Of a DNA stretch of 64,000 nt, positions 427-22,510 are shown piece after piece. Under the pieces are notes generated by a model. The model was given only the letters and a program-made list of their open reading frames with translations. It searched no databases and was not told the origin of the DNA. The number at the start of each line of letters is the position of its first letter. The first letter of the stretch is position 1. The stretch is from an uncultured Dehalococcoidia bacterium. GTDB lineage: Bacteria; Chloroflexota; Dehalococcoidia; SZUA-161. A program made the position numbers and the translations under genes. The stretch is from NCBI GenBank assembly GCA_964574685.1, contig CAZNOI010000003.1, positions 53,408-117,407 of the forward strand. The letters are read 5' to 3'.

Positions 427-501
427 TCCCCGATAGCTCAACGGTAGAGCGGGCGGCTGTTAACCGCTAGGTTGTAGGTTCGAATCCTGCTCGGGGAGCC
501 A
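427..501 (+). tRNA. tRNA-Asn(GTT): tRNA-Asn (anticodon GTT), CCA encoded
   Basis: Hand-folded cloverleaf. Acceptor TCCCCGA pairs with TCGGGGA; D arm GCTC/GAGC; anticodon stem GGCGG/CCGCT; loop CTGTTAA; T arm GTAGG-TTCGAAT-CCTGC; discriminator G then CCA. Confidence 0.9.
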
Positions 502-2048
502 TTCTGTATGGAAGGTAAAACCCCCACCGTCTCACCGACCCGACCATCCGGAAACACAGGCAGCGTGTACCTCACCGTGACCTCGTCCCTGTCTACGTCG
601 ATTGCCTTGACGAACGACCGCAGGAAGGCCTTGCGCTCCATGATCTCCGAATTCTCCAGCAGGCTTCTGAGGTCCTCGACGTAGGCCTGCACCGCGCCCT
701 CGTCCGTCAGCTCGACCGCGTGGAACAGCAGCGACTCCTCGGCCTCCGATTTCGCGCGCTCCAGTTCCAGCTTGCGGTCGAACAGAGCGTTGATTCTGGA
801 CGACAACTGCGCTGGCTTGTACTCCCCCGTCTCCAGGGCGTCGTACAGCTTGCCCAGCCTCCCCTCGACCTCCCCCATTTGCAGTTGCAGCAGCTCGATT
901 CTCTCGTGCGCCTCCCTGGAAGCGCTCCGCAGCTCGTCATTGACCAGCCCCACCAGCTCGTGCAGGTTCTCATTCGTCAGGATGTGCTGCCTGATCTGGT
1001 CGACGATGAAGCCCTCAATTTTGGCCTTCGGCAGCAGCGGCGTGTCGCAGACATCGCGGCCGCGCCGTCGCGCGTTGCCGCACATGTAGTAGAAATGCCG
1101 CCCCGACTTCACCGCGTGGCCTATCATCGCAGCGCCGCAGTGCCGGCATCTTATCAGACCGCTCAGCGCGTACTCGCTGTGCACCGTACGCGGATGGCTG
1201 ACCCTGGGGGCGCGTTCGCCCAGCTTCTCCTGCGCCTTGGCGAACGTCTCAGCGTCGATGATTGCTGGCCAGGCATTCTCCACCCTCACCGGCGGGCTGT
1301 CGCCATTGCCCAGCTGCCTCTTCTTGCGCTTGTCCCACACCATGACTCCTGCGTATGCCTCATTCTGCAGGATGCCGTGTACAGAGGTTGTGCCCCACTT
1401 CCCGCCCGTCGCGCTGCCCACGCCGTCCCTGTTCAGCCCGCCCGCTATCTCCTTGAGGCCCCGCCCTTGCAGGCACTCCCTGAATATCCGCTGCACCACC
1501 GGAGCGGTCGCAGGGTCCGGCGCGAGCTTGCTTCTGGACATCTCTCCGTCCTGGACGCTCACCCTCTTGAACCCGTAGGGAGTGCGCCCCCCGTTGTGAT
1601 AGCCGCGCGACGCGCTTTCTCTCATTCCCCTGACCACGTCCTGCGACAGGTTGGCCGAATAGAACTCGTCGATGACCTCTATGATCCCTTCGAGGAGCTT
1701 CCCGGAAGGCGTGTCCTCCAGCGGCTCGCTCACCGAGATTACCTGCACGCCGTGCTTCCGCAGCAGGGACTTGTAGACGATTGAGTCCTCGCGGTTCCTC
1801 GCGAACCTGGAGAGCTTCCACACCAGGATAGTGTCGAACCGTGGTGGCTTTTGCCTCGCAGCGGCGATCATTCGCTTGAAGCCCGGCCTGTCGATGGAGC
1901 GCCCGCTCTCCGCCTCGTCGACGTACTCCCGCACCACCTCGTGCCCGTTGCGCGAGGCCCACTCCCTCAGCGCCTTGAGCTGCGCCGAGATCGACAGGTC
2001 CGTGTCCTGCCTGTCCGATGACACCCTTGCGTACAAAGCGACGTTCAT
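438..2048 (-). CDS. large serine recombinase / integrase
   Basis: N-terminal resolvase catalytic domain: MNVALYARVSSDRQ with Ser nucleophile, then ...TILVWKLSRFARN. Large C-terminal recombinase domain with Cys-rich zinc ribbon (CRHCG...YYMCG) and coiled coil. Start taken at MNV (2048), overlapping the upstream gene by ATGA. The 3' end overlaps the tRNA. Confidence 0.85.
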   Translation of the reverse strand: MNVALYARVSSDRQDTDLSISAQLKALREWASRNGHEVVREYVDEAESGRSIDRPGFKRMIAAARQKPPRFDTILVWKLSRFARNREDSIVYKSLLRKHGVQVISVSEPLEDTPSGKLLEGIIEVIDEFYSANLSQDVVRGMRESASRGYHNGGRTPYGFKRVSVQDGEMSRSKLAPDPATAPVVQRIFRECLQGRGLKEIAGGLNRDGVGSATGGKWGTTSVHGILQNEAYAGVMVWDKRKKRQLGNGDSPPVRVENAWPAIIDAETFAKAQEKLGERAPRVSHPRTVHSEYALSGLIRCRHCGAAMIGHAVKSGRHFYYMCGNARRRGRDVCDTPLLPKAKIEGFIVDQIRQHILTNENLHELVGLVNDELRSASREAHERIELLQLQMGEVEGRLGKLYDALETGEYKPAQLSSRINALFDRKLELERAKSEAEESLLFHAVELTDEGAVQAYVEDLRSLLENSEIMERKAFLRSFVKAIDVDRDEVTVRYTLPVFPDGRVGETVGVLPSIQNGSPSRIRTYNLAVNSRPLYR

Positions 2049-2893
2049 CGTGCCCCTCCGTTCCGTGGTAACGCGATCTCGCTGATGTCCCATGTCCCGT
2101 TGCCGTCCAATGCAGAATTGCCGCCGTGCACATAGCAGTAGTCTATTGAGTCGTAGTCGTTCATCTCCAACATTTCCACAGTCGCCTGCACCGCGTCGGC
2201 CTCTGCTCCCATGTAACCCGTAGTAAGCAGAATCAGGAACGTGCTTGTTGCGCCTCGCCGCTTGGCCTCTTCCAGTTGGTCGTCGGCATCTTTCACGTTC
2301 TTGTTGAACTGGTCAAACGCCTTACCGCTCAAGGCGTGTGTGTGGCCATTGTAGAACTGATTCACCGCATCTGGGTTCAGGAATGAGCCATCCTCCTTCC
2401 ACTTGCGCAGCGTCACCCAGAAGTCATGAGGCAGTCGGTCCGATAGCTTGCCCTGCAAGTCGCCAGTGAGGTCTACTTCATCACCCAAGGCCATATCTCT
2501 TGATCGCGTCGCAATGACATCACGGAGGGCATCCCGGAGCAGCATTCTGCCGTCCCTCCTCAAGTCCAGGGCGACTAGGTCGGACACGTTCATCGACCAG
2601 ATGAATGTGCCTGACAACTCTCCGGACACAGCCTCCGCCACTTCGCGGCATATCGCTTCCAGTAGCGACGTCTGTTCGTGCAGCGCCGCATCAGTTAATC
2701 TCTTGACCTCAATGGCTACCTCGTCTCCCGTACCGGTGTCCTTGGCTACCCAGTCCGGGTTCTTCTGGCCCTGCTCCGGTTGGCCGTGCACGTCTGTGTA
2801 GCGCCCTACGAGTTCGATCGCCGTGCCATGTGTCTCGTTGTGTAGCTGCAAGACCCGCTCTACATACGACCGCTGCCATTCCTCATCTGCCAT
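2045..2893 (-). CDS. hypothetical protein, translationally coupled upstream of the recombinase
   Basis: 283-aa ORF from MADEEWQRSYVERV... No recognisable motif. Its stop overlaps the recombinase start (ATGA). Confidence 0.5.
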   Translation of the reverse strand: MADEEWQRSYVERVLQLHNETHGTAIELVGRYTDVHGQPEQGQKNPDWVAKDTGTGDEVAIEVKRLTDAALHEQTSLLEAICREVAEAVSGELSGTFIWSMNVSDLVALDLRRDGRMLLRDALRDVIATRSRDMALGDEVDLTGDLQGKLSDRLPHDFWVTLRKWKEDGSFLNPDAVNQFYNGHTHALSGKAFDQFNKNVKDADDQLEEAKRRGATSTFLILLTTGYMGAEADAVQATVEMLEMNDYDSIDYCYVHGGNSALDGNGTWDISEIALPRNGGAR

Positions 2894-3064
2894 CGTTGCC
2901 CCTCTCAACCGTAGCCTCCGGCGCATTTTAGCACATTTGTTCCATAAATGCAAGTATTTAGTACATGATTTTCACCAACGAGCTTCAAGACTGCTCCGCC
3001 CCGTGACATTCTCCGGTTGACCGTGTCCGACATCTGTTGATACCCTGCGCCACAGGAGCAAGAA

Positions 3065-3310
3065 ATGGTCAAGGCACGCACACCCGTACATCTCAAGGTC
3101 AACAGCGTCGCCGTCTGGAACTACCTCACTAGGCGCAACCTCGCCCAGAACGAGCTTGCCAAGCAGCTCGGCATCAGCACTGGCTACATGGCCCAGCTCA
3201 TCAGCGGCAAGAGAAGCCCGTCGCCCGCGCTTCGCCGCCGCATGCTCGAAACACTCGCCCCTCTCTCCTTCGACGACCTCTTCCAGGTATCAGAGAGGGA
3301 CGCCCTGTGA
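3065..3310 (+). CDS. XRE/Cro-like HTH transcriptional regulator
   Basis: NLAQNELAKQLGISTGYMAQLISGKRSPS is a typical XRE HTH. Divergent from the recombinase operon, a classic int/regulator layout. Confidence 0.7.
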   Translation: MVKARTPVHLKVNSVAVWNYLTRRNLAQNELAKQLGISTGYMAQLISGKRSPSPALRRRMLETLAPLSFDDLFQVSERDAL

Positions 3311-3458
3311 CGACCCTGCGCCAGGAGACGACGCCCGCCCCCGCCCTCGCACACGACGAGCCGTACGAGGGACTTCGCATCCTCGCCCGCATGATCGCCC
3401 GCGCCCACCTCGCCCGCACCGAGATCCCCGCCGACACCGACGCCAGCGGAGACCGCTG

Positions 3459-4106
3459 ATGCCCCGCCGCTGGTCCAGCCCCCAGACCCGAGCCTGGGCG
3501 TACCGCTATCTTGTCCTTCGGGACGGCGAGAAATGCGCCCTCTGCGGCAAAGTCCCGAAGAACACTTATTCCCTCGACATTGACCACATTGATCGTGACC
3601 CGACTAACACCTATCCCCACAATCTGCGCCTTCTGTGCCGCTCGTGCAACGTAGCTGAGGAGAACCGCAAACGCCCAAGTGACGCTGTGTGTGTGGGTGT
3701 GAAAGGCAGGGAGAGGCCGGGGACGAGGATAGCCAGGGACGTGGTGCCGTACTACGAAGGAAGCCCGGAGATGCAGGCGAACGCCCTTTTCGAGGTGCGC
3801 TATCGCCACTGGCTGCAGGGCTTCATAGACGCCCGAGGCTTCATACCGAAGAAGGAGGCCGTGAACGCTGGGGCTGAGGCCGTGGGGTGCAGCCCCGCGA
3901 CCGCGGCAAGGTACCTGGCCAAGCTCACGTCCTATCTAGGCCCACTGAAGGAGACCAAGGACATGCTGGGAGAGCCGGTGGTGACATCGAGGGCGGACGA
4001 CGGAGATTGCCCCCCAGGCTGTCCGTCGCAGGGGGAGGAACTGGCCCGCCGCCGTGGTGGGCGTCTAGCAGAGCCATCAAGCGACGGTGGTGAGGCCGAC
4101 GACTGA
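3459..4106 (+). CDS. HNH endonuclease (phage-type)
   Basis: CALCGK...LDIDHIDRDPTNTYPHNLRLLCRSCN (CxxC...DH...N...CxxC). The listed ORF 3156-4106 has a low-complexity Arg/Pro N-terminus. The in-frame ATG at 3459 is the plausible start. Confidence 0.7.
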   Translation: MPRRWSSPQTRAWAYRYLVLRDGEKCALCGKVPKNTYSLDIDHIDRDPTNTYPHNLRLLCRSCNVAEENRKRPSDAVCVGVKGRERPGTRIARDVVPYYEGSPEMQANALFEVRYRHWLQGFIDARGFIPKKEAVNAGAEAVGCSPATAARYLAKLTSYLGPLKETKDMLGEPVVTSRADDGDCPPGCPSQGEELARRRGGRLAEPSSDGGEADD

Positions 4107-4273
4107 GCCGCCCCGAGGTGCAGGACGCCTCCTGCCGGTTCTTGTGAAGGAGGAACAAGCCATGAAGCTGCTCAAGACCGCAATCGAGACCCAGCGCTGG
4201 GACCTCGCGGCGCACACCCTTGTGCTGGGGGCCGCCCTGGTTCTGGACGCACGAAAGAACGGAGCGGGAAGGA

Positions 4274-4630
4274 ATGCCAAGACAGAAGCGAAAACGAGGC
4301 GCGCAGCCCGGAAACCGCAACGCGCTTAAGCACGGCTTCTACTCGGAGGCCCTGAAGGAAGCCGAGAAGCTTGAGCTGGAGGCCGCCCGTGACCTCGACG
4401 GCCTGGACGACGAGATCGCGCTCCTGCGGGTGAAGATCAAGTCCCTGGTGGCGCACGACTCCGACGACATCAAGCTGCTGATCGATGCCACCAGCACCCT
4501 CGCGCGCCTCCTGCGGACCCGCTACAACCTCCAGCAGCACCAGCACGACGGCATCCGCGACGCCATCACCAGCGTCCTCACCGACCTCGCCATCCCCCTC
4601 GGGGTCACCATAGCAAAGGGTACAATGTGA
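4274..4630 (+). CDS. putative phage terminase small subunit-like / DNA-binding protein
   Basis: N-terminus MPRQKRKRGAQPGNRNALKHGFYSE (basic stretch plus GNxNAxKHGxYS, as I recall it from phage TerS-like proteins), then a coiled-coil region. HNH next to TerS is a common phage packaging arrangement. Confidence 0.35.
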   Translation: MPRQKRKRGAQPGNRNALKHGFYSEALKEAEKLELEAARDLDGLDDEIALLRVKIKSLVAHDSDDIKLLIDATSTLARLLRTRYNLQQHQHDGIRDAITSVLTDLAIPLGVTIAKGTM

Positions 4631-4758
4631 CCTCGCCTGCTCCACGGCCCGAGTGGGTACTTCAGTGTACTTGCGTGCACCTCGGATAAGCTGCGTACTA
4701 TTGACAAAAACCCGCCTGGCCTATAACGTTTTCTCAAACAGCTGTGGGGTGGCTACGT

Positions 4759-5811
4759 ATGTTCACACTTCTCGACCTCTTCTGCGGAGCTGGCGGCATG
4801 ACGGCTGGCTTCGTCGATGCCGGATTCGTACCCATCTTCGCGGTGGACAGCTGCAGATGGTCCGTGGACACCTACAATGCCAATTTCGGACACCATGCCA
4901 CGTGCACGCCGGTCGAGGATGTTGAGCATTTCCCCAAAGCCGACGTCGTGATCGGTGGCCCCCCTTGCCAGGGATTCAGCAACCTTGGCAAGCGTCTTCC
5001 CTTTGACCCGAGGAATCAGCTGTGGCGCCACTTCGTACGCGCGATTGCGGCCGCGCAGCCCTTGTACTTCGTAATGGAGAACGTGCCAGAGCTGCTCAAG
5101 TCCGCCGAATATGAAGCGTTGAAAGCTGAGACCGAGGGCCTCGGGTATGAAGTTGACGGTCAGGTTCTGATCGCCGCCGACTACGGCATTCCTCAGACGC
5201 GCAAGCGTAGCTTCGTTATAGGCTCGCGCGTCGGGCCACCACTGTTCCCGGTGCCCACCCACCGGCGCCCTGACGAAGTCGACTTGTTCAATCTCCACCT
5301 GCCCCCCTGGCGGACGGTCAGGGACGCGATCGCGGACCTCCCACTTGTACCGACCGACTTCGACTGGCACATCGGCCGCAATCCTACTACGATGTCATTG
5401 GAGCGCTATCGTCACGTCCCCGAGGGAGGGAACCGATTCGATCTTCCCACGCACCTCCAGCCGCCGTGCTGGATACGGAAGACAAAGGGGGGAACCGACC
5501 TGTTCGGCCGGCTGTGGTGGGACAGACCTGCGTATACCATTCGGACTGAGTTCTTCAAGCCCGAGAAAGGACGCTACCTCCACCCCCAGGCCGACCGCCC
5601 GATAACCCATCGGGAGGCGGCGCGTTTCCAGACCTTCTCGGATGATTTCACGTTCTGCGGTTCGAAGATTGAGGTCGCCAAGCAGATAGGCAACGCGGTT
5701 CCGTCCCTGCTCGCTCGCAGGATCGCCGAGGCTGTTAGAGAAGCCGTTGGGGATGCTCAACTCACGAGTGCGTCGACTCAGCCCACTCGCGCAGTATGTC
5801 CAACGCAGTGA
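4759..5811 (+). CDS. DNA (cytosine-5)-methyltransferase
   Basis: Motif I LDLFCGAGGMTAGF, motif IV GGPPCQGFS, motif VI MENVPEL, motif VIII QTRKRSF, motif X GNAVPSLLA. Confidence 0.9.
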   Translation: MFTLLDLFCGAGGMTAGFVDAGFVPIFAVDSCRWSVDTYNANFGHHATCTPVEDVEHFPKADVVIGGPPCQGFSNLGKRLPFDPRNQLWRHFVRAIAAAQPLYFVMENVPELLKSAEYEALKAETEGLGYEVDGQVLIAADYGIPQTRKRSFVIGSRVGPPLFPVPTHRRPDEVDLFNLHLPPWRTVRDAIADLPLVPTDFDWHIGRNPTTMSLERYRHVPEGGNRFDLPTHLQPPCWIRKTKGGTDLFGRLWWDRPAYTIRTEFFKPEKGRYLHPQADRPITHREAARFQTFSDDFTFCGSKIEVAKQIGNAVPSLLARRIAEAVREAVGDAQLTSASTQPTRAVCPTQ

Positions 5812-6406
5812 GCTCCGGTGGCTGCCCGGTCTCTTTCGACCTTGCCTCCAATGCCTTCATGACCTTCTTCGGCAGGTGAACGACTAGCTGTAGTGGCAGC
5901 TTCTCAGGGAAGGCCAAGGGGCATTCGCTGCAGCTCTCTCTCCGGCATGTAGCACACTCGCGCCTCTTTCGGATGTTGCAGGATGTGCACGTTGTCTGCA
6001 GGTTGCTGTCATCATCAGCGCCGTAGCGAATGAGCGGCACCTTGTGGTCTATGGTGGGACTGGGCTTGCCGGGGTCGTCGCCTACCTGTACAAGACAGAG
6101 CTGACACACATACCGGTCACGTGCATATATCCGCCTTCGCTGCTTGGCGCTGGGATATCTGCGGACCAGACGAGGCCTCACCGGCTCGGCTGACGTCCTA
6201 CGATAGTGCCACTGGCCGTTTATGTTCGACCTATCGATGTCGAAGCCGTACTCATCGCGAAGCTGCGCGATACGACGACGGTAGTCGCTCTGCCCGCTTA
6301 TCTTCAGCATTTCCTCTCGAGACACCCACTCGCCTACCGGTAGTGCGTCCAGGAACGGCTGAAGATGCTGTGGTACCGGGTCGACCCCTTTGCGGTTGCC
6401 TCCCAA
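5762..6406 (-). CDS. HNH-family restriction endonuclease (R subunit of Type II R-M), convergent with the methyltransferase
   Basis: VCQLCLVQ...IDHKVPLIRYG...NLQTTCTSCN HNH core plus extra CxxC pairs. The 3' end overlaps the methyltransferase gene by 50 bp. The controller gene lies immediately upstream. Confidence 0.6.
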   Translation of the reverse strand: MGGNRKGVDPVPQHLQPFLDALPVGEWVSREEMLKISGQSDYRRRIAQLRDEYGFDIDRSNINGQWHYRRTSAEPVRPRLVRRYPSAKQRRRIYARDRYVCQLCLVQVGDDPGKPSPTIDHKVPLIRYGADDDSNLQTTCTSCNIRKRRECATCRRESCSECPLAFPEKLPLQLVVHLPKKVMKALEARSKETGQPPELTALDILREWAESTHS

Positions 6407-6408
6407 GT

Positions 6409-6648
6409 CTACTCTTCTCCCTCGACTGCCGACTGAAAGAACGACATCGACTTCCCGTATGCGCGGGCGAACTCCACCAACTCCACGAAGTCAACGCGTC
6501 GCTCGCCAGACTCGCACTTAGATATGTACGACTGAGACCTGCCAAGGCGCTTCGCGGCCTCTGCCTGAGTCAAACCGGCTTCCAGTCGCGCTCGCCGCAG
6601 GCTGGCGACAAGACTCTCGTATGATTGCCTGTCTTCACCCCGCTTCAT
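6409..6648 (-). CDS. controller (C) protein-like XRE HTH regulator of the R-M system
   Basis: 80 aa from MKRGEDRQS.... LEAGLTQAEAAKRLGRSQSYISKCESGERR is an XRE HTH. Its stop codon is 3 bp from the endonuclease start (C-R operon). Confidence 0.6.
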   Translation of the reverse strand: MKRGEDRQSYESLVASLRRARLEAGLTQAEAAKRLGRSQSYISKCESGERRVDFVELVEFARAYGKSMSFFQSAVEGEE

Positions 6649-6819
6649 GACCGTGTCTGCTCTGACCAAGAACGGCATTATCCCATTCTGGAATAGATAT
6701 CCCAAATTGGAATATCGCGCCCTCCGCATTGAGTCTCAGACACGCAGCGGGTCGTACCATGTGGTGTGAAATGCCGACAAGTGGCAGAATAGGGTGGACC
6801 ATGTCACCATGGGGGCCGC

Positions 6820-7521
6820 ATGACTGCTCAAGACAAGGGTGCACACGACCTGGACCAGCTTGCGGTTGACCAATTCCGGCAGGTTCTAGTCCTGTGGTTC
6901 CGCGCTCACGGTCGGGACCTTCCCTGGCGGCGCACACGTGATCCCTACGCGATTCTACTGTCGGAAGTGCTGTTACAGCGGACGCAGGCCTCTCAAGTCG
7001 CGGCCCACTTTGATTCGATCATCTCCGCAATTCCGACTATCACTTCACTCGCTGGTGCCTCGGAGCAAGACATCCGTGTAATCTTAGCGCCGCTGGGCCT
7101 TGCCAAACGCGCAGGTACGCTCCGCGCCATGGCGGTTGACATCATTGAGCACTACGATGGCTCTGTCCCGTCGAATGTCAACTCTCTTATGGCACTGCCC
7201 GGAGTCGGCCGCTACATCGCTTCGGCGACTGCCTGCTTCGCGTTCGGTGCCAAGACGCCGGTACTAGATGCGAACGTCATCCGTATCCTCAGCAGGTACT
7301 TCGCCGTGGCTTCCGCCATCAAACGCCCGCGATATGACAACCGGCTCTGGAGTGCAGCGGCAGACATCTTGCCGGAATCCGACTACGTCGATTTCAACAG
7401 AGCGCTGATTGACTTCGCTTCTCTTGTCTGCACCGGCCGACGGCCTGGCTGCCTTGACTGCCCACTACGTTCTACCTGCCGGAACGCCGTCGACGCCCTT
7501 ACCCGATTGTCTGAGACTTGA
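6820..7521 (+). CDS. EndoIII/MutY-family HhH-GPD DNA glycosylase with [4Fe-4S] loop; context suggests a Mig-type T:G mismatch glycosylase
   Basis: LPWRRTRDPYAILLSEVLLQRT; HhH LPGVGRYIASA; catalytic VLDANVIRILSR; C-x6-C-x2-C-x5-C (CTGRRPGCLDCPLRSTC). 233 aa, EndoIII-sized. Lies adjacent to the C5-methyltransferase. Confidence 0.75.
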   Translation: MTAQDKGAHDLDQLAVDQFRQVLVLWFRAHGRDLPWRRTRDPYAILLSEVLLQRTQASQVAAHFDSIISAIPTITSLAGASEQDIRVILAPLGLAKRAGTLRAMAVDIIEHYDGSVPSNVNSLMALPGVGRYIASATACFAFGAKTPVLDANVIRILSRYFAVASAIKRPRYDNRLWSAAADILPESDYVDFNRALIDFASLVCTGRRPGCLDCPLRSTCRNAVDALTRLSET

Positions 7522-7591
7522 CAAGACGGGCCTCCTGGCGTATTTACTTACATGTTCGGCACCGGTTCATCGCCGACACAAGGAGACAACC

Positions 7592-9556
7592 ATGACCGAA
7601 GAGGACAGGGCGCTCTACCTGAGGTTCCATGGTCGGATACTAGAGCATTTTGGCATCCAGACTTACCAAAGCCCGGTTGCCGCCATCGCGGAGCTTGTGG
7701 CGAATTGCTGGGACGCGGATGCAAGTGAAGTGCGAATAGTGCTTCCGGCGAACTTGGGGGACAATGCCACCATCGAGATACTGGACGACGGTATCGGCAT
7801 GACATTCGATGAGTGTCAAGAACGCTACCTAAGCGTTGGTCTGAACCGGAGGGCCAATGACCCGGATGAACGTTCGCCGGAGAAGAGGAGACCGATCTTG
7901 GGCCGCAAGGGAATAGGCAAGTTCGCTGGCTTCGGCATTGCAGAAACCATGCGCATCTCAACGACCAGCAAGCAGACGGGCGAGGCGACCGTGTTCGAGC
8001 TTCGTCTACCTGACCTAATCAGCGATGAATACGTAAGCACCAACGATAAGCCTGTCGACATCGTTGAGCATAGGTCTCCCGATGACCAACGCAAGTTGGA
8101 GCACGGCACTGTTGTGACACTATCGGGGCTCAAGCTCGGAAAGACTCCGTCGCCCGACGCGTTCGCCAAGAGTATGGCTCGTCGTTTTCTGCTCCTCCAG
8201 CAGCAGGCCGACTTCCGGGTGCTTGTCAATGATCAGGAGTTGCCCAAATCCTTCGACTTGCAGGACGTGCAATACGTGTTTCCCCGCGACTACAAATCTG
8301 AGGAGATGCCCGCCGATCTTGAGACACAAGACATTGAACTCTATGGCGTGGAGAAGCTATCCAACGACCGTAAGATCCGATGGCAGTTCTGCTTCCACAA
8401 TGATACGATTGACGACGAGGAGCTGCAGGGTATTGCTATCTTCGCCAAGGGGAAGCTCATCCAGGCCCCATTCCTTTTCAATCTCAGCGGTGGTCTCGGC
8501 GGTCAACACGGGGTAGCCTATCTGTCTGGTCAAGTCCAGGCGGACTACCTTGACTCGCTCTCCGTGGACCTTGCCGCTACGGAGCGTCAGAGGGTCAACT
8601 GGGAGCATAGAGAGAGCGCCCCACTGCTGGAGTGGGGGCAGACCAGGATCAAGGAGCTCCTCAGGACTTGGCAAGACCGCCGAGGTGAGCAGAGAACTCG
8701 CATGCTTGATCAACGCGTGTCCGGTTTCTCATCGAGGTTGGGCAGACTACATTCACCTGAGCAGCGAACGGTCTCCAAAGCTTTGAGGAAGCTTGCCCAA
8801 GTTTCCACACTGAATGATGCACAATTTGAAGACCTCGGAAACGCGGTACTCACCGCGTGGGAAGAGGGACGCCTCAGAGGACTCATTGACCAGATTGCCC
8901 AAGCTCAGACCATGTCCGAGGAAGACCTCCTCAGCGTCCTCCTGGAGGCACAGGCGCTCACGGCTCTCAACGTGGCAGAAGCAGTCCGAACCAAGCTCCA
9001 GACTGTGGCTGGCCTGATACAGCGTATAGAACGCCGTGAGCTCGAAACAGCTGTACGCGACTACATAGCGAAGAACCCTTGGCTTATAGCTCCCCAATGG
9101 GAAACCTTCCGCAAGGAGACTACTGTTAAGCACCTCCTAGATCAGGCCGCCGGGCAGGTCGGTTTCACCGACAACGAGTTCAACGGTCGTGTCGACCTCG
9201 CACTCGCGAGCGGCAATCACCTGCTTGTTCTCGAATTCATGCGACCAAGCCTTACCCTCAATTGGGACCATCTACAACGCTTCGAGAGATACGTCCTGAA
9301 TATACGGGGCAACATAGACGCCAACACCGCTGGCGTTTTCAGGCGCGTCACTGGTTACGTAATAGCAGACAACCTTGAGGCTCGGTCGGATAATCGCGCC
9401 AAGATTACTTCTATGGTCAAAGAAGACATGTACGCCCTCGATTGGCGCTCCCTCTTCAGCCAGGCCCTTGCCAAGTGGCAGGAGTTCCTTGACATACTCG
9501 TCTCACGGGCTCCGGAGGACGAGCGTCTGCAGGCTCTACTCCAGCCTCCCGACTAA
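7592..9556 (+). CDS. MORC-like GHKL (HATPase_c_3-type) ATPase with long C-terminal region
   Basis: ELVANCWDADASEVRI (N box), IEILDDGIGMT (G1), GRKGIGKFAGFGIA (G2-like). C-terminal part contains NPWLIAPQW...GRVDLAL...LLVLEFMRPS, which resembles a restriction-endonuclease-like core. RBS AGGAG before ATG 7592. Confidence 0.75.
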   Translation: MTEEDRALYLRFHGRILEHFGIQTYQSPVAAIAELVANCWDADASEVRIVLPANLGDNATIEILDDGIGMTFDECQERYLSVGLNRRANDPDERSPEKRRPILGRKGIGKFAGFGIAETMRISTTSKQTGEATVFELRLPDLISDEYVSTNDKPVDIVEHRSPDDQRKLEHGTVVTLSGLKLGKTPSPDAFAKSMARRFLLLQQQADFRVLVNDQELPKSFDLQDVQYVFPRDYKSEEMPADLETQDIELYGVEKLSNDRKIRWQFCFHNDTIDDEELQGIAIFAKGKLIQAPFLFNLSGGLGGQHGVAYLSGQVQADYLDSLSVDLAATERQRVNWEHRESAPLLEWGQTRIKELLRTWQDRRGEQRTRMLDQRVSGFSSRLGRLHSPEQRTVSKALRKLAQVSTLNDAQFEDLGNAVLTAWEEGRLRGLIDQIAQAQTMSEEDLLSVLLEAQALTALNVAEAVRTKLQTVAGLIQRIERRELETAVRDYIAKNPWLIAPQWETFRKETTVKHLLDQAAGQVGFTDNEFNGRVDLALASGNHLLVLEFMRPSLTLNWDHLQRFERYVLNIRGNIDANTAGVFRRVTGYVIADNLEARSDNRAKITSMVKEDMYALDWRSLFSQALAKWQEFLDILVSRAPEDERLQALLQPPD

Positions 9557-9589
9557 ACAGACTGAACCTTCCTTCAGGAGGCCTTTCCC

Positions 9590-10426
9590 ATGGCCTACGT
9601 AATCCTCACTCAGAGAGTCCCTCCCGACGACTACCGGGACGAGATCGGCACACTGTACAACTACCCTCGGCGATACTGGAGGCGACTCTACACAGGCGAT
9701 CGCATGATCTATCACCAGCCGCGCGATCGTTCAAACGGAGGAATGGTCTATTTCGGATGCGGTGTAGTCGGAGACATCCAACCCGACCCTCACGACCCAA
9801 ACCGGCGTAACGCAGAGATCGTCGACTACACAGCCTTTGAAAGGCACGTTCCCGTCACGCGTCGGGGCCGGTTTCTTGAGCCTGCCATCAATAGGCAGGT
9901 CGACATGGTAGGCAACGCAGTTCGCACTATTGATGAACCGACCGCTCTCGCCATCCTGAGTGCTTCTCATACGCAGCCCCCATGGGCTTGGCTGCCCACC
10001 GGTGGGACCGGGGCACCACCATCGTCGCCTACTAACGAGGCGGACCTGCGGCGTGCTATTGACACCTTCGACCAGCACTATGCAAGCCTGGCCCCCGAGC
10101 GCCGTGCGCGCACGCTATCGACGCTTCATCGCCCATCATCCATAGGGGCATACCTGAAGCAGCTCTACGGCACCAGATGTCGCATCTGCGGCGTGGACGG
10201 TTTCCTGCAGAGAATCGGGACCTCCTATGCCGAGATTCACCACGTCGATGAGCTCAGCACTGAACACCCCGGAGTTCTCGGCACGCAGAACATCTTGATC
10301 CTCTGTCCTACCTGTCACAGAAAGCTCCATTTCGCGAACGTCACTGTCATTCCCACTTCCTTGGGCTGGGACATGACCATCAATGGTCGGCATGTCGCCG
10401 TCCAAAGGATGCATAGCCCCGCCTGA
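9590..10426 (+). CDS. HNH endonuclease with about 190-aa N-terminal domain of unknown type (possibly modified-base/DNA binding)
   Basis: C-terminal CRICGVDG...AEIHHVDELS...NILILCPTCH HNH motif. N-terminal region YVILTQRV...YNYPRRYWRRL...MVYFGCGVV has no motif I can name. Starts 34 bp after the GHKL gene, same strand. Confidence 0.7.
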   Translation: MAYVILTQRVPPDDYRDEIGTLYNYPRRYWRRLYTGDRMIYHQPRDRSNGGMVYFGCGVVGDIQPDPHDPNRRNAEIVDYTAFERHVPVTRRGRFLEPAINRQVDMVGNAVRTIDEPTALAILSASHTQPPWAWLPTGGTGAPPSSPTNEADLRRAIDTFDQHYASLAPERRARTLSTLHRPSSIGAYLKQLYGTRCRICGVDGFLQRIGTSYAEIHHVDELSTEHPGVLGTQNILILCPTCHRKLHFANVTVIPTSLGWDMTINGRHVAVQRMHSPA

Positions 10427-10860
10427 CCATACGGCCCGCGCACCGGCGTAGGGGTGCCTTCCGGCCTAGACAGGCTCGCCTCCGGCACCCCCTGTTGGGT
10501 CGCTTCGTTCTCCCTAGGCCCTGGTGGTGCCTGCCGCCGGGGTTTCACCACCCCACGGCATCGTGCCTTCGGCACCATGCCGCCCCAGTGCAGGGCACCG
10601 TGGCTGCGGCTCCGCTGGCTTGCTCGCTCCGCTCCGGCTTCTCGGCGGGCGCGCAGGCTGCCCCGCCCCGCCCCTCCAATCAACATGGATCGAGCGGGGA
10701 GACAAAGCGGACACTGCCGAGTACTGCCTCCCGGAGTTGCCACTGGACTGTAGTAGAGTCCCAATGGGTGGTGTATGAGGGGGCTGGAAAATAGCTACCG
10801 CCCGGGAGATGACTGATAGCGAAAGGCGCCTCTACAGCAAGGCAATGAGAGGGAGGCGAA

Positions 10861-11100
10861 ATGGCTGATTTGGATAAGGAGATCAAGAGAATAGAAGCGG
10901 GCGACGCCTGGGACGAGAGCGATGAAGTCGTCCGGGTAGAAGTGAAGAAGCCTCTGGACAAGGTGATCCCCGTGCGGCTCTCGGCGGACAAGTGGGAGGA
11001 GCTGAGGAAGGAAGCCACTGAGCTTGGCATCGGTCCGACGACCCTTGCCCGGATGTGGATACTGGAGCGTTTGCGACTTGGGACGAAGGCCGGAGTCTAG
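10861..11100 (+). CDS. RHH/CopG-like (BrnA-type) antitoxin-like protein, orphan
   Basis: IPVRLSADKWEELRKEATELGIGPTTLARMWILERL is a ribbon-helix-helix antitoxin-like sequence. No toxin ORF adjacent. Confidence 0.5.
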   Translation: MADLDKEIKRIEAGDAWDESDEVVRVEVKKPLDKVIPVRLSADKWEELRKEATELGIGPTTLARMWILERLRLGTKAGV

Positions 11101-11149
11101 CGGTGATAACCTGTCACTTTGATTGTGATATGGCGTTTCATCACCTCTG

Positions 11150-11353
11150 CAATGGGGACTTTCAGTCTATCCAACACTTCGGTCAGTTCCCTCTCCCTCT
11201 AAGGGAGAGGGTCAGGGTGAGGGTGCGTAAATGCATGCGGCTTAAGAATGGTGCTGCGGCGGTTGTTCGCCTCACTCCGGCTTTCTCCCCTTTGGGGAGA
11301 GAGGGGATGGTTTCGCTTTGGTCAGTGCTGCCCTCTCCCTCTAAGGGAGAGGG
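11150..11353. repeat. cluster of three GC hairpin repeats (REP/MITE-like family), locus A
   Basis: CCCTCTCCCTctaAGGGAGAGGG at 11189-11211 followed by tcAGGGTGAGGGTGCG. TCTCCCCtttGGGGAGA at 11284-11300. A second CCCTCTCCCTctaAGGGAGAGGG at 11331-11353. Lies between convergent gene ends. Confidence 0.6.
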
Positions 11354-12478
11354 TCAGGCGGCCGTGTGCGCGGCGGTCCGGCAGCGGGCAGCCTCTGCTG
11401 TGTACTCTGCAATCAGGGATTGCATGAGTTCGCTGACCGATATGATGGTGTCCACGCGATAGGCGTTGGCCCCGGCGAAGGCGAAGCCGTTCCTCATGTT
11501 ACCCCTCTTCGCGTTGGCCAGCGCCAGCGCGATACAGTAGCTGGACTTCTCGAAATCACAGGTCTTGAGGCACTTCCAGGGGCACTTGAACGGCTTCCTT
11601 GCACCTGCAGCCACTTCATCGAGGAACCGGCTCCTGATGGCCCTGCCGGGCAGGCCGACCGGGGAGTCGATGATGGTCAGGTCCCCCTCTTTGCAGTTCA
11701 CATATGCATCTTTGAACTGCGTTGCCGCATCACATTCGTATGTCCCCACGAACCTGGTCGCCATCTGAACGCCCTTCGCGCCAAGCTCCATGAACTGGAA
11801 CATGTCCGCGCCTGTGTAGACTCCGCCCGCTGCGATAACTGGGATGCTCTTCCCGAAGCGTTGCTCGTAGGGCTCAATGGCGGAAATTGCGTCCATCAGT
11901 ATGTTCTTCAGTGAGTAGGCGGGATCGTCGATCTGTTCTCTCTTGAACCCGAGATGCCCTCCGGCCAGAGGGCCTTCCACCACGACAGCATCCGGCACGT
12001 GATTGTAGCTCCGCGCCCATTGCTGGAAGACGATCCTGGCTGCTCTTGCGGAGGATATGATCGGGACTACCCTGGTCGCCCCCTGTGTAAGGCGGTCGAT
12101 GGCAAGTGCGTCGGGTTTCTTGGCGAGTCCCGCCCCGAGGAAGACCAGGTCGGCGCCCTCATCGAAGGCGGTCTCGACCAGTCCATCATAGTCGTTGAGA
12201 GCTACCATTACGTTCACACCGATTATGCCCTTGGTAACGTCCCTCGCTTTGCGTATCTCGGCGCGAAGCGCACGTTTGTTGGCCTCTCTGGAGTTGGTCA
12301 TGAAGTCGGACTCGTGAAGCCCGATTCCGGCGGTGGCAATGACTCCGATCCCACCTTCATTCGCGACGGCGGAGGCCAATCGGGAGAGGGAAATGCCTAC
12401 CCCCATTCCTCCCTGGACTATTGGAATACTTGCTTCCAGGTCACCAATTCGAAGCCCTGGAAGTCCGTTAAGTCTCAT
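11354..12478 (-). CDS. nitronate monooxygenase / FabK-like enoyl-ACP reductase family (NPD) protein
   Basis: IVQGGMGVGIS...GGIGVIATAGIG... and overall NMO-family (FMN TIM-barrel) fold, with a Cys-rich C-terminal extension. Confidence 0.75.
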   Translation of the reverse strand: MRLNGLPGLRIGDLEASIPIVQGGMGVGISLSRLASAVANEGGIGVIATAGIGLHESDFMTNSREANKRALRAEIRKARDVTKGIIGVNVMVALNDYDGLVETAFDEGADLVFLGAGLAKKPDALAIDRLTQGATRVVPIISSARAARIVFQQWARSYNHVPDAVVVEGPLAGGHLGFKREQIDDPAYSLKNILMDAISAIEPYEQRFGKSIPVIAAGGVYTGADMFQFMELGAKGVQMATRFVGTYECDAATQFKDAYVNCKEGDLTIIDSPVGLPGRAIRSRFLDEVAAGARKPFKCPWKCLKTCDFEKSSYCIALALANAKRGNMRNGFAFAGANAYRVDTIISVSELMQSLIAEYTAEAARCRTAAHTAA

Positions 12479-12803: not shown

Positions 12804-14762
12804 ATGCCAACGAAGAGAGCCGCCAGACCAGATTCTACTACGAACACCGGGAAAACGCGGAAGCAGTCCGGACCCAGGAGTCGGGCCGCGAACGGCCCAC
12901 TACCGCCTTTCGACGTGGATATCGAGATCGACGCCACTGCTGTACTAACCCGGGACGGCAAGATCCGCTACCAGAGCCCATCGGTCGAGCAGCTACTGGG
13001 CTACAGGGCTGACGAGGTGACCGGCAGGGACTTCGTGGAGCTGCTTCACCCCGACGACGCGCGAAGCGCGACCGAGAAGCTTGAGGTGGTCACGGAGAAC
13101 CCCGGACGTACCGTCTCCATGGAGATGCGCTTTCTGCACAAGGACGGCTCATGGCGAACCGTCGAGAGCGTGGGCACTAACCTTCTCGATGACCCTGAAG
13201 TCAACGGCATCATCATGAGCTATCGCGACGTCAGCAGTCGCAAGAGACTGGAGGACCAACTCTGGTTGCTCCAGAATGCGATAGAGAACGCGATCGCACC
13301 CATGGCCATCTCCGACATACAGGGCAACATAACCTACGTCAACCAAGCGTGCATGAAGCTGTGGCGTCGCGACAAGAAGGAGGACCTGGTCGGCGGGTCC
13401 TACTGGGAACTGCTGGAGCTGGAGGATCCTGCGCTGGCTGACGAGATCGCATCCACCATGATCGAGAGCGGCTCGTGGGAGGGCGAGATCGCCGCTCGTA
13501 GGAAGGATGGCTCAACCGTACACGTCAGGGTCCTGACCAGCATTCTCAAAGACAAGGACGGCAAGCCCATCCAGACCATTTCATCGTTCGTTGATCTGAC
13601 TGACAGGAAGCGTGTGGAGCAGGCTCTTCGGGAGTCGCAGGCGCAATACACCGCACTGCTCGACAACGTACCCGATGCGGTCTTCCGCTACCAGGAAGGC
13701 GTCATGACCTGGGCCAACGACAGGATCGAGCAGATCCTGGGCTACAGCAGGGACGAGCTTGTCGGCAAGGTCGCGGATCTCTTCGTCTCCGACGACGTAA
13801 GCCTCACCCAGGTGACCGAAACGGTGGGAGAGGGAATCAGGGAGCAGGGCCACTTCCGTGGCACTATCAAGGCGAAGAAGAAGAACGGCACAGAGGTTGA
13901 CATAGAGTTCTCAGCCTCCAATGTTCGTGGCAAGCGCCCCGTTGAGATTGTCGGTGTTGCCCGCGACATAACCGAACGCAAAAAGGCTGAGGAGGAACGA
14001 GAGAGGCTGACGGCCGAGCTTGCGGAGAAGAACGCGGAGCAGGAGCAAATCATATACGTTACCTCTCATGACCTTCGTTCGCCGCTGGTCAATGTTCAGG
14101 GCTTCAGCAAGGAACTCAAGTACTCGGTCGAGGAAGTGGGCACCATCTTGAGTTCCGAAGAGGTCCCACAAAGCATACGGGACCAGGTTGTGCCGATACT
14201 CGATCAGGATGTCCCTGATGCACTTGCCTATATCGCGACAAGTGTATCAAAGATGGACACACTGCTGACGGGACTGCTGAGGCTGTCGCGTCTCGGCAGA
14301 GCAGCCCTGAGCTTCGAGAAGCTCAATATGAACCTGATGCTGTTCGACATAGCCAAGTACTTCGAGTTGCGTATCAGGGAACTTGGAGCGACCATCGATG
14401 TTGGCACTTTGCCACCCTGCACAGGGGATTTCGTCCAGACCAACCAGGTGTTCTCGAACCTCGTCGACAACGCTTTGAAGTATTCCGACCCGTCTCGACC
14501 ACCAGTCATCAAGGTCACAGGAGAGGTCGTGGATGAGGAGGTCGTCTACTGCGTGGCCGACAACGGCACCGGAATTGCCAGGGAGCACCAGAAGAAGGTC
14601 TTCGAGATATTCCACCGGCTCAATCCTGAGGCATCGGGGGGCGAGGGCCTCGGACTGAGCATAGTGAAGAAGGTAATCGGGCGCCACAGCGGCCGCATAT
14701 GGCTCGAATCGGAGCCGGGCGAAGGCAGCAAGTTCTACGTATCGTTGCCTGCGGCGGACTAG
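12804..14762 (+). CDS. multi-PAS sensor histidine kinase
   Basis: Several PAS repeats, HisKA H-box YVTSHDLRSPL, HATPase N/G boxes (DNALKYS..., ADNGTGIA...GGEGLGLSIV). Confidence 0.8.
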   Translation: MPTKRAARPDSTTNTGKTRKQSGPRSRAANGPLPPFDVDIEIDATAVLTRDGKIRYQSPSVEQLLGYRADEVTGRDFVELLHPDDARSATEKLEVVTENPGRTVSMEMRFLHKDGSWRTVESVGTNLLDDPEVNGIIMSYRDVSSRKRLEDQLWLLQNAIENAIAPMAISDIQGNITYVNQACMKLWRRDKKEDLVGGSYWELLELEDPALADEIASTMIESGSWEGEIAARRKDGSTVHVRVLTSILKDKDGKPIQTISSFVDLTDRKRVEQALRESQAQYTALLDNVPDAVFRYQEGVMTWANDRIEQILGYSRDELVGKVADLFVSDDVSLTQVTETVGEGIREQGHFRGTIKAKKKNGTEVDIEFSASNVRGKRPVEIVGVARDITERKKAEEERERLTAELAEKNAEQEQIIYVTSHDLRSPLVNVQGFSKELKYSVEEVGTILSSEEVPQSIRDQVVPILDQDVPDALAYIATSVSKMDTLLTGLLRLSRLGRAALSFEKLNMNLMLFDIAKYFELRIRELGATIDVGTLPPCTGDFVQTNQVFSNLVDNALKYSDPSRPPVIKVTGEVVDEEVVYCVADNGTGIAREHQKKVFEIFHRLNPEASGGEGLGLSIVKKVIGRHSGRIWLESEPGEGSKFYVSLPAAD

Positions 14763-14781
14763 TACGCATCTCAGGAGTGAT

Positions 14782-15240
14782 GTGATGAAGGGTGCATTGA
14801 CGATTCTGATAGCCGAGGATGACATGGGCCATGCCGCCCTGATCCAGAAGAACCTTAGAAGGGCCGGCATAAACAACCCCATAGTCCACTTCAAGGATGG
14901 GCAAGAAGCGCTGGATTTCCTGTATGGCAACTCTGATGAGCCGAAGTTCCAGTCTGGCAGCTCGTACCTGCTGCTACTCGACATAAGGATGCCAAAGGTG
15001 GATGGCGTCGAGGTGCTGCGAAGGGTGAAGGACGATCCGGGTCTCAGGAAGATGCCAGTGATCATGATCACCACAACTGATGATCCGAGGGAAGTGGCCC
15101 ACTGCCACGAACTCGGATGCAGCAACTACATCACCAAGCCAATAGAGTACGAGAACTTCGTAGAGGCCATCAGACAGCTCGGCCTGTTCCTGATGGTGGT
15201 GGAGGTGCCGGAGATCGATGGACAGACCCGGAACAACTGA
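14782..15240 (+). CDS. single-domain response regulator (CheY-like receiver)
   Basis: ILIAEDDMGHA...LLLLDIRMPKVDGVEV...MPVIMITT...ITKP, REC domain only. Confidence 0.8.
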   Translation: MMKGALTILIAEDDMGHAALIQKNLRRAGINNPIVHFKDGQEALDFLYGNSDEPKFQSGSSYLLLLDIRMPKVDGVEVLRRVKDDPGLRKMPVIMITTTDDPREVAHCHELGCSNYITKPIEYENFVEAIRQLGLFLMVVEVPEIDGQTRNN

Positions 15241-22460: not shown

Positions 22461-22510
22461 GACGTATCAATCGAATACCGCCCGTTTGCATGAGGGCAAG
22501 GGAGTCTGTG

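Follow-up and report, generated by a model that had tools for sequence, protein, structure and literature searches.

The left ~11 kb of the 64-kb window analysed here (the whole stretch of DNA, in whose coordinates all positions are given unless stated otherwise) holds an island of ~10 kb that adjoins a tRNA-Asn gene, spans positions 501 to ~10,675, and is read by us, with moderate confidence, as a member of a family of helper-dependent, satellite-like integrative islands of 8–10 kb in Dehalococcoidia-like Chloroflexota. A previous reading of the letters alone (the sequence-only reading) had drawn attention to positions 3065–4630, where it described a Cro-like regulator, an HNH endonuclease and a TerS-like gene that are not accompanied by a large terminase (TerL), and all of these were present, subject to small corrections. 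The parts by which the family is recognized are a serine recombinase at a tRNA gene, a variable gene (in some members together with an XRE repressor) facing the Cro gene, a translationally coupled operon, a cargo slot and, in the two closest members, a right-end block. Possessing an integrase, a switch, cargo and only the specificity half of a packaging module, and neither motor, capsid, tail and lysis genes nor a recognizable replicon, the island is best explained as a hitch-hiker that would draw on a related element for TerL and procapsids.

Profile searches with the 118-aa product of the TerS-like gene gave matches to three PHROG small-terminase families (phrog_1889, 4.9e-7; phrog_370; phrog_509), a sole NCBIfam match below cut-off (TerS_not_xtmA, 3.3e-4, 20 bits versus a cut-off of 120) and no Pfam match, and the protein has no recognizable N-terminal helix-turn-helix (HTH). 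When 44 diverse members of its family were examined, 34 matched phrog_1889, 22 phrog_509 and nine phrog_370, the one other recurrent PHROG match being a family without assigned function. A word-indexed search yielded 1359 homologs of ~120 aa, with 55–68% identity among the 120 best, and an exhaustive profile search 2366 representatives at 50% clustering; the family is mostly from Dehalococcoidia. Matching stretches numbered 416 in GTDB genomes, mostly metagenome-assembled genomes (MAGs) of Dehalococcoidales, and 142 in IMG/VR, whereas tblastn of TerS versus 50,697 GenBank phage records gave no match. Of 162 loci fetched, the 139 that extend 1.5 kb or more past TerS were scored for an adjacent TerL. 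An open reading frame (ORF) of 450–490 aa, a divergent large terminase (Terminase_6C; phrog_5909, phrog_38), followed immediately after TerS in 127 of them, and all residues that are invariant in the TerS family, including a C-terminal PLG motif, are kept in the window protein. As TerL lies directly downstream in so many related loci, the 118-aa protein is, as far as sequence can tell, a genuine phage small terminase of a Dehalococcoidia phage lineage, here without its TerL partner. The sequence-only reading had staked its TerS-like call on similarity to TerS families in profile searches, and the call was borne out both by the PHROG matches and by the TerL neighbour.

The absence of TerL, portal and capsid genes after TerS, which had also been claimed, extends across the entire 64-kb window. 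Using tblastn with seven TerL representatives of the family, nothing better than E = 1.3 was obtained, and when the 43 genes of three complete relatives were compared with the window, HNH and TerS alone matched. The island ORFs contained no primase, helicase or Rep match (Pfam, PHROGs, NCBIfam) and no AlpA-type match. In relatives, TerL is followed by genes for a portal, a scaffold and an HK97-fold capsid protein. The complete TerL-encoding elements (terminally redundant, circular or assembled past one genome length) are 13.8–15.3 kb in size, namely 13,844 bp (L165), 14,151 bp (L163), 14,875 bp (L086), 15,258 bp (L080/L102) and ~15.1–15.3 kb (L145, L157), and such elements are widespread in Dehalococcoidales MAGs. 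They carry a tyrosine integrase, co-oriented with the packaging genes and upstream of them, sometimes an HNH gene, then orf55 (a small gene described below), TerS, TerL, an SPP1-type portal, a scaffold, a capsid protein and a protein of the decoration/adaptor-like type. A protein of 660–678 aa without a family match is present in some of them, and no recognizable tail or replication module was seen in any complete relative. They could be temperate phages of very small size or else satellite-like elements that form capsids. One of them, L086/L085 (14.9 kb), comes from the same two metagenomes (3300029267 and 3300017989) as the island contigs L171 and L168, and its HNH and TerS are 56% and 60% identical, respectively, to those of the island; this co-occurrence is suggestive only, and makes L086/L085 a candidate helper. 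As a separate observation, many Dehalococcoidales MAG copies contain 2–5 kb of unrelated genes between TerL and portal, at ~11.8–16.3 kb in locus coordinates (L002, 11859–15995; L018, L030, L037, L040, L042 and L005), encoding for instance TIG/Big-domain, HTH_17 and sigma-70-like proteins, suggesting that the head module contains an additional cargo slot.

The genes preceding terS further link the island to these packaging modules. Full-length homologs of the HNH protein (43–61% identity) immediately precede orf55-TerS-TerL in contigs of viral and metagenome origin, and the string HNH-(orf55)-TerS-TerL occurs in 14 of the first 162 loci as well as in further metagenome contigs, L080/L102 having no adjacent TerL. 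Since its homologs adjoin orf55-TerS-TerL in relatives, the HNH gene, together with orf55 and TerS, is predicted to form the front of an HNH-dependent terminase module of the kind described for HK97-like cos phages. HNH-orf55-TerS would then be the half that recognizes DNA and cuts cos in the packaging module of the 14–15 kb capsid-encoding elements found in the same bacteria, in agreement with the earlier assignment of HNH/TerS as a packaging-module start. The HNH protein comprises an HNH domain (residues ~8–72), a winged-helix-like domain (residues ~100–178) and an acidic tail, and its catalytic and zinc residues (CxxC, DH, N, CxxC-N) are invariant in alignments A3 and A5. Its AlphaFold2 (AF2) model has a mean predicted local distance difference test score (pLDDT) of 81, exceeding 90 in both domains; the second domain, modelled as three helices and a β-hairpin, looks like a winged helix, although Foldseek gave no significant match to the model (best E = 0.018), the top ones being HNH nucleases and winged-helix regulators.

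Between HNH and terS lies orf55, a 55-codon ORF whose overlap with the TerS start had been pointed out and amounts to 56 nt. A homolog directly upstream of and overlapping terS was found in 91 of the first 162 loci, and in 110 distinct sequences the first 28 residues are strongly conserved, with L4, A7, L15, A16, A17 and H18 nearly invariant; orf55 is thus a real gene. On the other side of HNH, orf50 is translationally coupled at both of its ends, overlapping the stop codon of Cro (GTGA) and the start codon of HNH (TGATG). The GTG start of orf50 and its coupling to HNH were as the sequence-only reading had proposed, but its TGA stop lies at 3457–3459 and not at 3458. We saw orf50, with its conserved core GLRILARMIAR, solely in island-type loci.

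The TerL-less layout (serine recombinase, variable gene, Cro, small ORF, HNH, orf55, TerS, cargo) was found in at least four other sequence sets, and three islands are located at different tRNA genes, Asn in the window, Lys in L168–L173 and Arg in L177 with L197. The cargo differed in each of four islands: restriction–modification genes in the window, a methyltransferase with QueC, TIR proteins, and an unknown protein of 505 aa. In L168–L173 the order is tRNA-Lys, serine recombinase, a 266-aa gene, Cro, orf48, HNH, orf55, TerS, a type II methyltransferase with a 260-aa gene and QueC, tRNA-Gly and a non-coding block. L174, in which no TerL was found within 7.5 kb, has the recombinase, a 243-aa gene, an XRE repressor, Cro, orf62, HNH (81% identity), orf55 and TerS (63%); among its cargo are Fic, an SDH protease and two proteins of the TIR-pentapeptide type. 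L177 and L197 together present tRNA-Arg, recombinase, a 272-aa gene, an XRE repressor, Cro, a small ORF and HNH (82%), then orf55, TerS, an 89-aa and the 505-aa gene, with no TerL within 2 kb. The genes of 266, 243 and 272 aa at the variable position are unrelated, and the XRE repressor that faces Cro in L174 and L177 is not present in the window island. The sister cargo of L169 (its positions 14042–15040) includes QueC, of the 7-deazaguanine pathway, beside the methyltransferase, and the right end of this island is bordered on its inner side by a complete tRNA-Gly.

Comparison with L169 showed three pieces of shared DNA, i.e. the catalytic domain of the recombinase (79%), positions 2910–4607 (90.8%) and positions 10441–10674 (90.4%). 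The core similarity ends 23 nt before the terS stop (position 4607) and resumes at 10441, and both flanks and cargo are unrelated. Within the core, Cro is 95% identical to that of L169 (71% to that of L174) and the intergenic region 2954–3064 is 92.8% identical, the similarity to L174 also beginning there; within the recombinase, the catalytic N-terminal domain is 79% and the DNA-binding part 44% identical. As islands at different tRNA genes and with unrelated flanks share the same breakpoints, the TerL-less layout would be older than their split, and the most economical history is that it predates the divergence of window and L169 and that the islands later moved and swapped cargo. Cro, HNH and TerS each fall into three-member clusters at ≥ 90% identity, drawn from the window's own contig of 161,926 bp, an NCBI contig of 269,535 bp and metagenome contigs of up to 105 kb, whereas the Dcm and BbrUII-like proteins of the window cargo are singletons. 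The genome represented by the 269,535-bp contig is counted among the further sequence sets through its membership in these protein clusters, its TerS being 91% identical.

Among 80 metagenome loci holding HNH homologs, those with ≥ 76% identity were all island-type (serine recombinase and Cro upstream, or TerS without TerL downstream), two being shown to lack TerL and a third ending inside HNH, whereas all homologs with ≤ 61% identity that had an adjoining TerS of the same family and sequence beyond it had TerL. The backbone likewise differs from that of the TerL-encoding elements, as the integrase is of the serine and not the tyrosine type and in the opposite orientation, and orf50 is island-specific. 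L001 (9456–10360) was weighed as a possible additional island. It combines a Cro homolog of 69% identity with a homolog of orf55 and with TerS, has no HNH, TerL or integrase, lies in another genomic setting, and was left out for want of the remaining hallmarks of the islands; it may be another kind of orphan TerS locus.

To judge selection, dN/dS was calculated from Nei–Gojobori counts for window versus L169, with few substitutions available for the small genes. The ratio was 0.08 for the HNH domain and 0.03 for the winged-helix domain, both together showing 21 synonymous versus 4 non-synonymous changes (Fisher p = 2e-10), 0.19 for TerS residues 20–110 (p = 3e-4), 0.22 for Cro, 0.23 for the non-overlapping part of orf55 and 0.44 for orf50. 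HNH and TerS have thus been under purifying selection since the window–L169 divergence, and for HNH the comparison with L174 also gave a low ratio (0.19). The two shared non-coding pieces diverge by 7–10%, compared with 16–21% at synonymous sites.

In three islands the recombinase ORF runs with its 3′ end antisense into or through the 3′ part of the tRNA gene (window, 438–501, Asn; L169, 7066–7201, Lys; L177, 545–619, Arg), and the crossover site therefore probably lies within the recombinase's own 3′ coding end. At the other end, a block of ~235 nt is 90.4% identical to L169 15115–15349 despite the unrelated cargo. It contains frameshifting indels and a hairpin (10556–10582) that is kept by a compensatory change, and had no Rfam match, as both a whole-window Rfam search and a permissive one on 2900–11400 gave tRNA only. 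This block is a candidate packaging (cos/pac), attachment (att)-arm or origin sequence.

Features of the island and its surroundings in window coordinates
Feature	Position	Strand	Evidence and remarks
CBS-domain gene (end)			left of tRNA-Asn
tRNA-Asn (GTT)	427..501	+	ARAGORN; Rfam tRNA, 69 bits; left boundary, probable integration target
Large serine recombinase (island integrase)	438..2093	-	Pfam Resolvase 2e-35, Recombinase 3e-25, Zn_ribbon_recom 2e-15; phrog_95 integrase 1e-129
302-aa ORF (unk302), variable accessory gene	2045..2953	-	divergent from Cro; likely ATG ~60 nt inside the ORF
Divergent regulatory intergenic region	2954..3064		111 nt
Cro-like HTH regulator	3065..3310	+	first gene of the operon; Pfam HTH_3 2e-6; PHROG repressor/regulator families
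orf50	3307..3459	+	50-aa island-specific ORF; GTG start at 3307, TGA stop at 3457-3459
HNH nuclease, two-domain	3459..4106	+	ATG at 3459; PF01844 5e-6, PF13392 1e-5
orf55	4162..4329	+	55-codon micro-protein; strong Shine-Dalgarno sequence (GAAGGAGG) upstream
TerS-like gene, 118 aa	4274..4630	+	product begins MPRQKRKRGAQPGNRNALKHGFYS; PHROG TerS matches
Variable cargo slot	4759..10426		restriction-modification genes; Pfam, NCBIfam, PADLOC
Dcm methylase	4759-5811	+	cargo
HNH type II restriction endonuclease	5762-6406	-	cargo
Controller XRE	6409-6729	-	cargo
MutY-like nicking enzyme	6820-7521	+	cargo
BbrUII/HgiDII-family restriction endonuclease	7592-9556	+	cargo
Type IV-like HNH	9590-10426	+	cargo
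Right-end block	10441..10674		conserved, non-coding
79-aa ORF	10861-11100		no family match; after ~430 nt of non-coding DNA past the cargo

As to the remaining gene content, the divergent arrangement of integrase and Cro described in the sequence-only reading is correct in its layout, but the integrase belongs to the large serine recombinases, all three of its Pfam domains scoring far above cut-off, and not to the tyrosine type, and the 302-aa gene is placed between the two; unk302 had no match in Pfam, PHROGs, NCBIfam or PADLOC. A promoter/terminator scan of 2800–4900 gave nothing above chance, and no sigma-70 consensus was seen in the divergent region. Three restriction-type units are packed into the cargo slot, the first consisting of Dcm, the HNH type II enzyme, the controller and the MutY-like nicking enzyme, which probably repairs T:G mismatches arising from 5-methylcytosine deamination, the second of a GHKL-ATPase restriction enzyme of the BbrUII/HgiDII family, and the third of the type IV-like HNH protein. 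Beyond the 79-aa ORF follow a stretch with two palindromic repeats and, from 11.3 kb, host genes, those sampled with Pfam being metabolism and signalling genes. The host probably belongs to the class Dehalococcoidia, judging by the adjoining NMO gene, whose closest named relative is 75% identical. The palindromic repeat, 28 nt in length (CCCTCTCCCTCTAAGGGAGAGGGTCAGG), occurs twice just outside the island (11189–11216 and 11331–11358) and also in the unrelated contigs L117, L142 and L113, and is therefore a repetitive extragenic palindrome-like dispersed element. A giant ORF of 3423 aa occupies 22490–32761 on the plus strand.

Several observations weigh against a helper-dependent island. Islands of 8–10 kb fit poorly with strict cos packaging by presumed helpers of 14–15 kb, unless multimers or smaller capsids are involved, and no replication gene was recognized among the island ORFs. 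There was no direct sign of excision, circular forms or encapsidation, with no circular junction or viral-fraction copy found, and searches of IMG/VR with the island-type HNH and Cro returned no island-type contig. Neither direct nor inverted att repeats between the island ends, nor, at the right end, a tRNA 3′ fragment that had been displaced, could be detected, and no packaging site was recognized; the right-end block folds with z-scores of −0.9 and −1.3 on the two strands, which is not significant, and no counterpart of it was detected in L174, a contig that may stop short of its island's right end. Only across its basic N-terminal ~50 residues (~4–56), with the motif GNxNAxKHGFYS, does the window protein resemble named TerS families; its AF2 monomer is all-helical and a poor model (mean pLDDT 56), and a profile search of the PDB gave no relative. 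Between window and L174, TerS is 63% identical with a dN/dS of ~0.5, and in a neighbour-joining tree the island TerS proteins do not form one clade, which would fit TerS having evolved faster as well as its having been exchanged with phages. Finally, all comparators are metagenomic.

Some of these points would suit a decaying remnant, in which a small prophage or capsid-forming element lost everything past terS, restriction–modification genes landed there, and HNH, orf55 and TerS stayed behind as functionless leftovers. Neither a replicon nor att repeats were found, the adjacency of TerL in 127 of 139 relatives makes its absence a derived state, and truncated TerL genes do exist in a few relatives (L016, L046 and L051). 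Decay, however, would hardly place the breakpoints (terS end and right-end block) identically in two islands at different tRNA genes with unrelated flanks, and at least four further sequence sets are TerL-less, with no TerL fragment left. HNH and TerS are intact and selected, and the backbone of serine recombinase, Cro and orf50 is unlike that of the TerL-encoding relatives with their co-oriented upstream tyrosine integrase. A remnant, as the sequence-only reading had termed it, is therefore unsupported, because a conserved TerL-less architecture recurs at three tRNA genes with swapped cargo and under purifying selection, and we give decay only a slim chance. The selection on HNH and TerS by itself fits any function, including that of a packaging decoy in a defence island, where HNH-orf55-TerS would sabotage infecting relatives by TerL titration or DNA cutting, complementing the restriction or TIR cargo, while the island moved rarely by its recombinase and some other route. 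Defence-type cargo is indeed present in three of the four islands with cargo read (in L174, among other cargo), and interference with the helper by packaging proteins of satellites is on record (PMC5052747; PMC11417361). Yet a decoy leaves the same core at three different tRNA sites unexplained, PADLOC has no model matching TerS and only a weak match for HNH (PtuB, 7e-4), and interference and hitch-hiking are compatible in known satellites, so that we regard it as unlikely. Serine integrases need a separate directionality factor, and no such factor was recognizable in the island; together with the operon adjoining the recombinase and the lack of any excised form, this could indicate a repurposed DNA-handling module in which the TerS-like protein, orf55 and HNH serve recombination, as directionality factor or accessory nuclease, or an in situ packaging of neighbouring chromosome resembling lateral transduction. 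But in orthology and synteny the module corresponds to true packaging modules, it retains every TerS-family-invariant residue down to the PLG motif, and directionality factors are not known to be TerS-like, which leaves this explanation the least probable of all.

Under the preferred reading of a helper-dependent satellite-like island, a related TerL-encoding element or phage would become active, upon which the island would be derepressed and excised by its own recombinase. The island TerS, orf55 and the DNA-binding HNH protein would then mark island DNA, and the marking complex would recruit the helper's TerL and procapsids, so that the island with its cargo would be packaged and transferred. 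Induction, excision, the packaging site, the interaction of TerS with a helper TerL and transfer are all postulated here. A more far-reaching version, unlikely in our view, is that an undescribed Chloroflexota satellite family, with the specificity half of an HNH-dependent terminase and a swappable defence cassette, parasitizes the 14–15 kb elements without recognizable tail or replication genes. The islands would then themselves be satellites to satellite-like elements, within a class of uncultured bacteria that grow slowly and have no known helper–satellite system. Should a helper package the island, the range of phage satellites would reach the Chloroflexota/Dehalococcoidia and would include a distinct minimal hijack kit, namely HNH, a micro-protein and TerS, with an integrase of the serine type and without a replicon. 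Such packaging would also account for the movement of restriction–modification, TIR and other defence cassettes among hard-to-culture bacteria with few known mobile elements. The large unannotated TerS family, with its 2366 cluster representatives, and its 14–15 kb carriers are in addition useful virus and satellite markers for subsurface and sediment metagenomes.

As regards known systems, Chloroflexota go unmentioned as satellite hosts in a large survey of satellites (PMC10085698), and our literature search found no report of satellites in this phylum. The closest functional parallel is provided by the pac-type Staphylococcus aureus pathogenicity islands (SaPIs) and other phage-inducible chromosomal islands (PICIs), the former bringing a TerS of their own that makes use of the TerL of the phage (PMC5052747). 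Shared with the window island are an integrated island of ~10 kb, an integrase at one end, a divergent switch, an own TerS, the lack of TerL, capsid, tail and lysis genes, and accessory or defence cargo after terS (PMC5052747; PMC10085698). Unlike them, the window island has a large serine recombinase and a Chloroflexota host, its TerS comes with an HNH nuclease and a micro-protein, and it has no recognizable AlpA/Stl homolog, no primase-replicase, no Ppi and no genes for capsid remodelling; satellite integration is typically carried out by tyrosine integrases (PMC10690885). Measured by the PICI model of SatelliteFinder (PMC10085698), it has an integrase at its end and a terS without tail, holin or capsid genes, but no primase/replicase module, and in the regulation module a Cro-like HTH protein without any AlpA-type match being seen. 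Thus, of the PICI-type satellite proposed in the sequence-only reading, the satellite-like lifestyle is retained as the best reading, whereas PICI membership is not, owing to the serine integrase and the lack of a recognizable replicon; the island works most like a TerS-bearing PICI and stands apart from PICIs in having no recognizable replicon, no AlpA-type match and an integrase of another type.

Capsid-forming PICIs (cf-PICIs) exploit HNH-TerS-TerL cos packaging with the gene order hnh-terS (10.1101/2022.09.08.507074). The TerL-encoding 14–15 kb relatives resemble them in gene content (Int, HNH, TerS, TerL, portal, scaffold, capsid, no recognizable tail). A cf-PICI was rejected for the window island itself, which is not capsid-forming since no TerL, portal, protease or capsid gene of its own is present in the window. 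[quoted passage not shown] The Streptomyces satellites MulchRoom and MiniFlayer, also from outside the Proteobacteria and Firmicutes, share the lack of replication genes and the possession of HNH and terminase genes (PMC10690885). They encode, however, a full head and terminase set, compared with HNH and TerS only in the window island. The Vibrio phage-inducible chromosomal island-like element (PLE) integrates with a large serine recombinase. It also shares dependence on the TerL of its helper, with packaging-specifier proteins of its own (PMC11417361), but has no homologous genes and differs in having its own replication initiator, a pac-site mimic and a large lytic phage as helper. At the level of the module, the nearest model is that of HK97-type phages, for which HNH (gp74) is described, in the part of the literature consulted (10.1101/2022.09.08.507074, citing Kala 2014 and Quiles-Puchalt 2014), as needed with TerS-TerL for cos cleavage, and in which the HNH gene likewise lies immediately upstream of terS. 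Compared with this module, the window island possesses an HNH protein with an extra winged-helix-like domain, a TerS of only 118 aa and a conserved 55-aa ORF overlapping terS.

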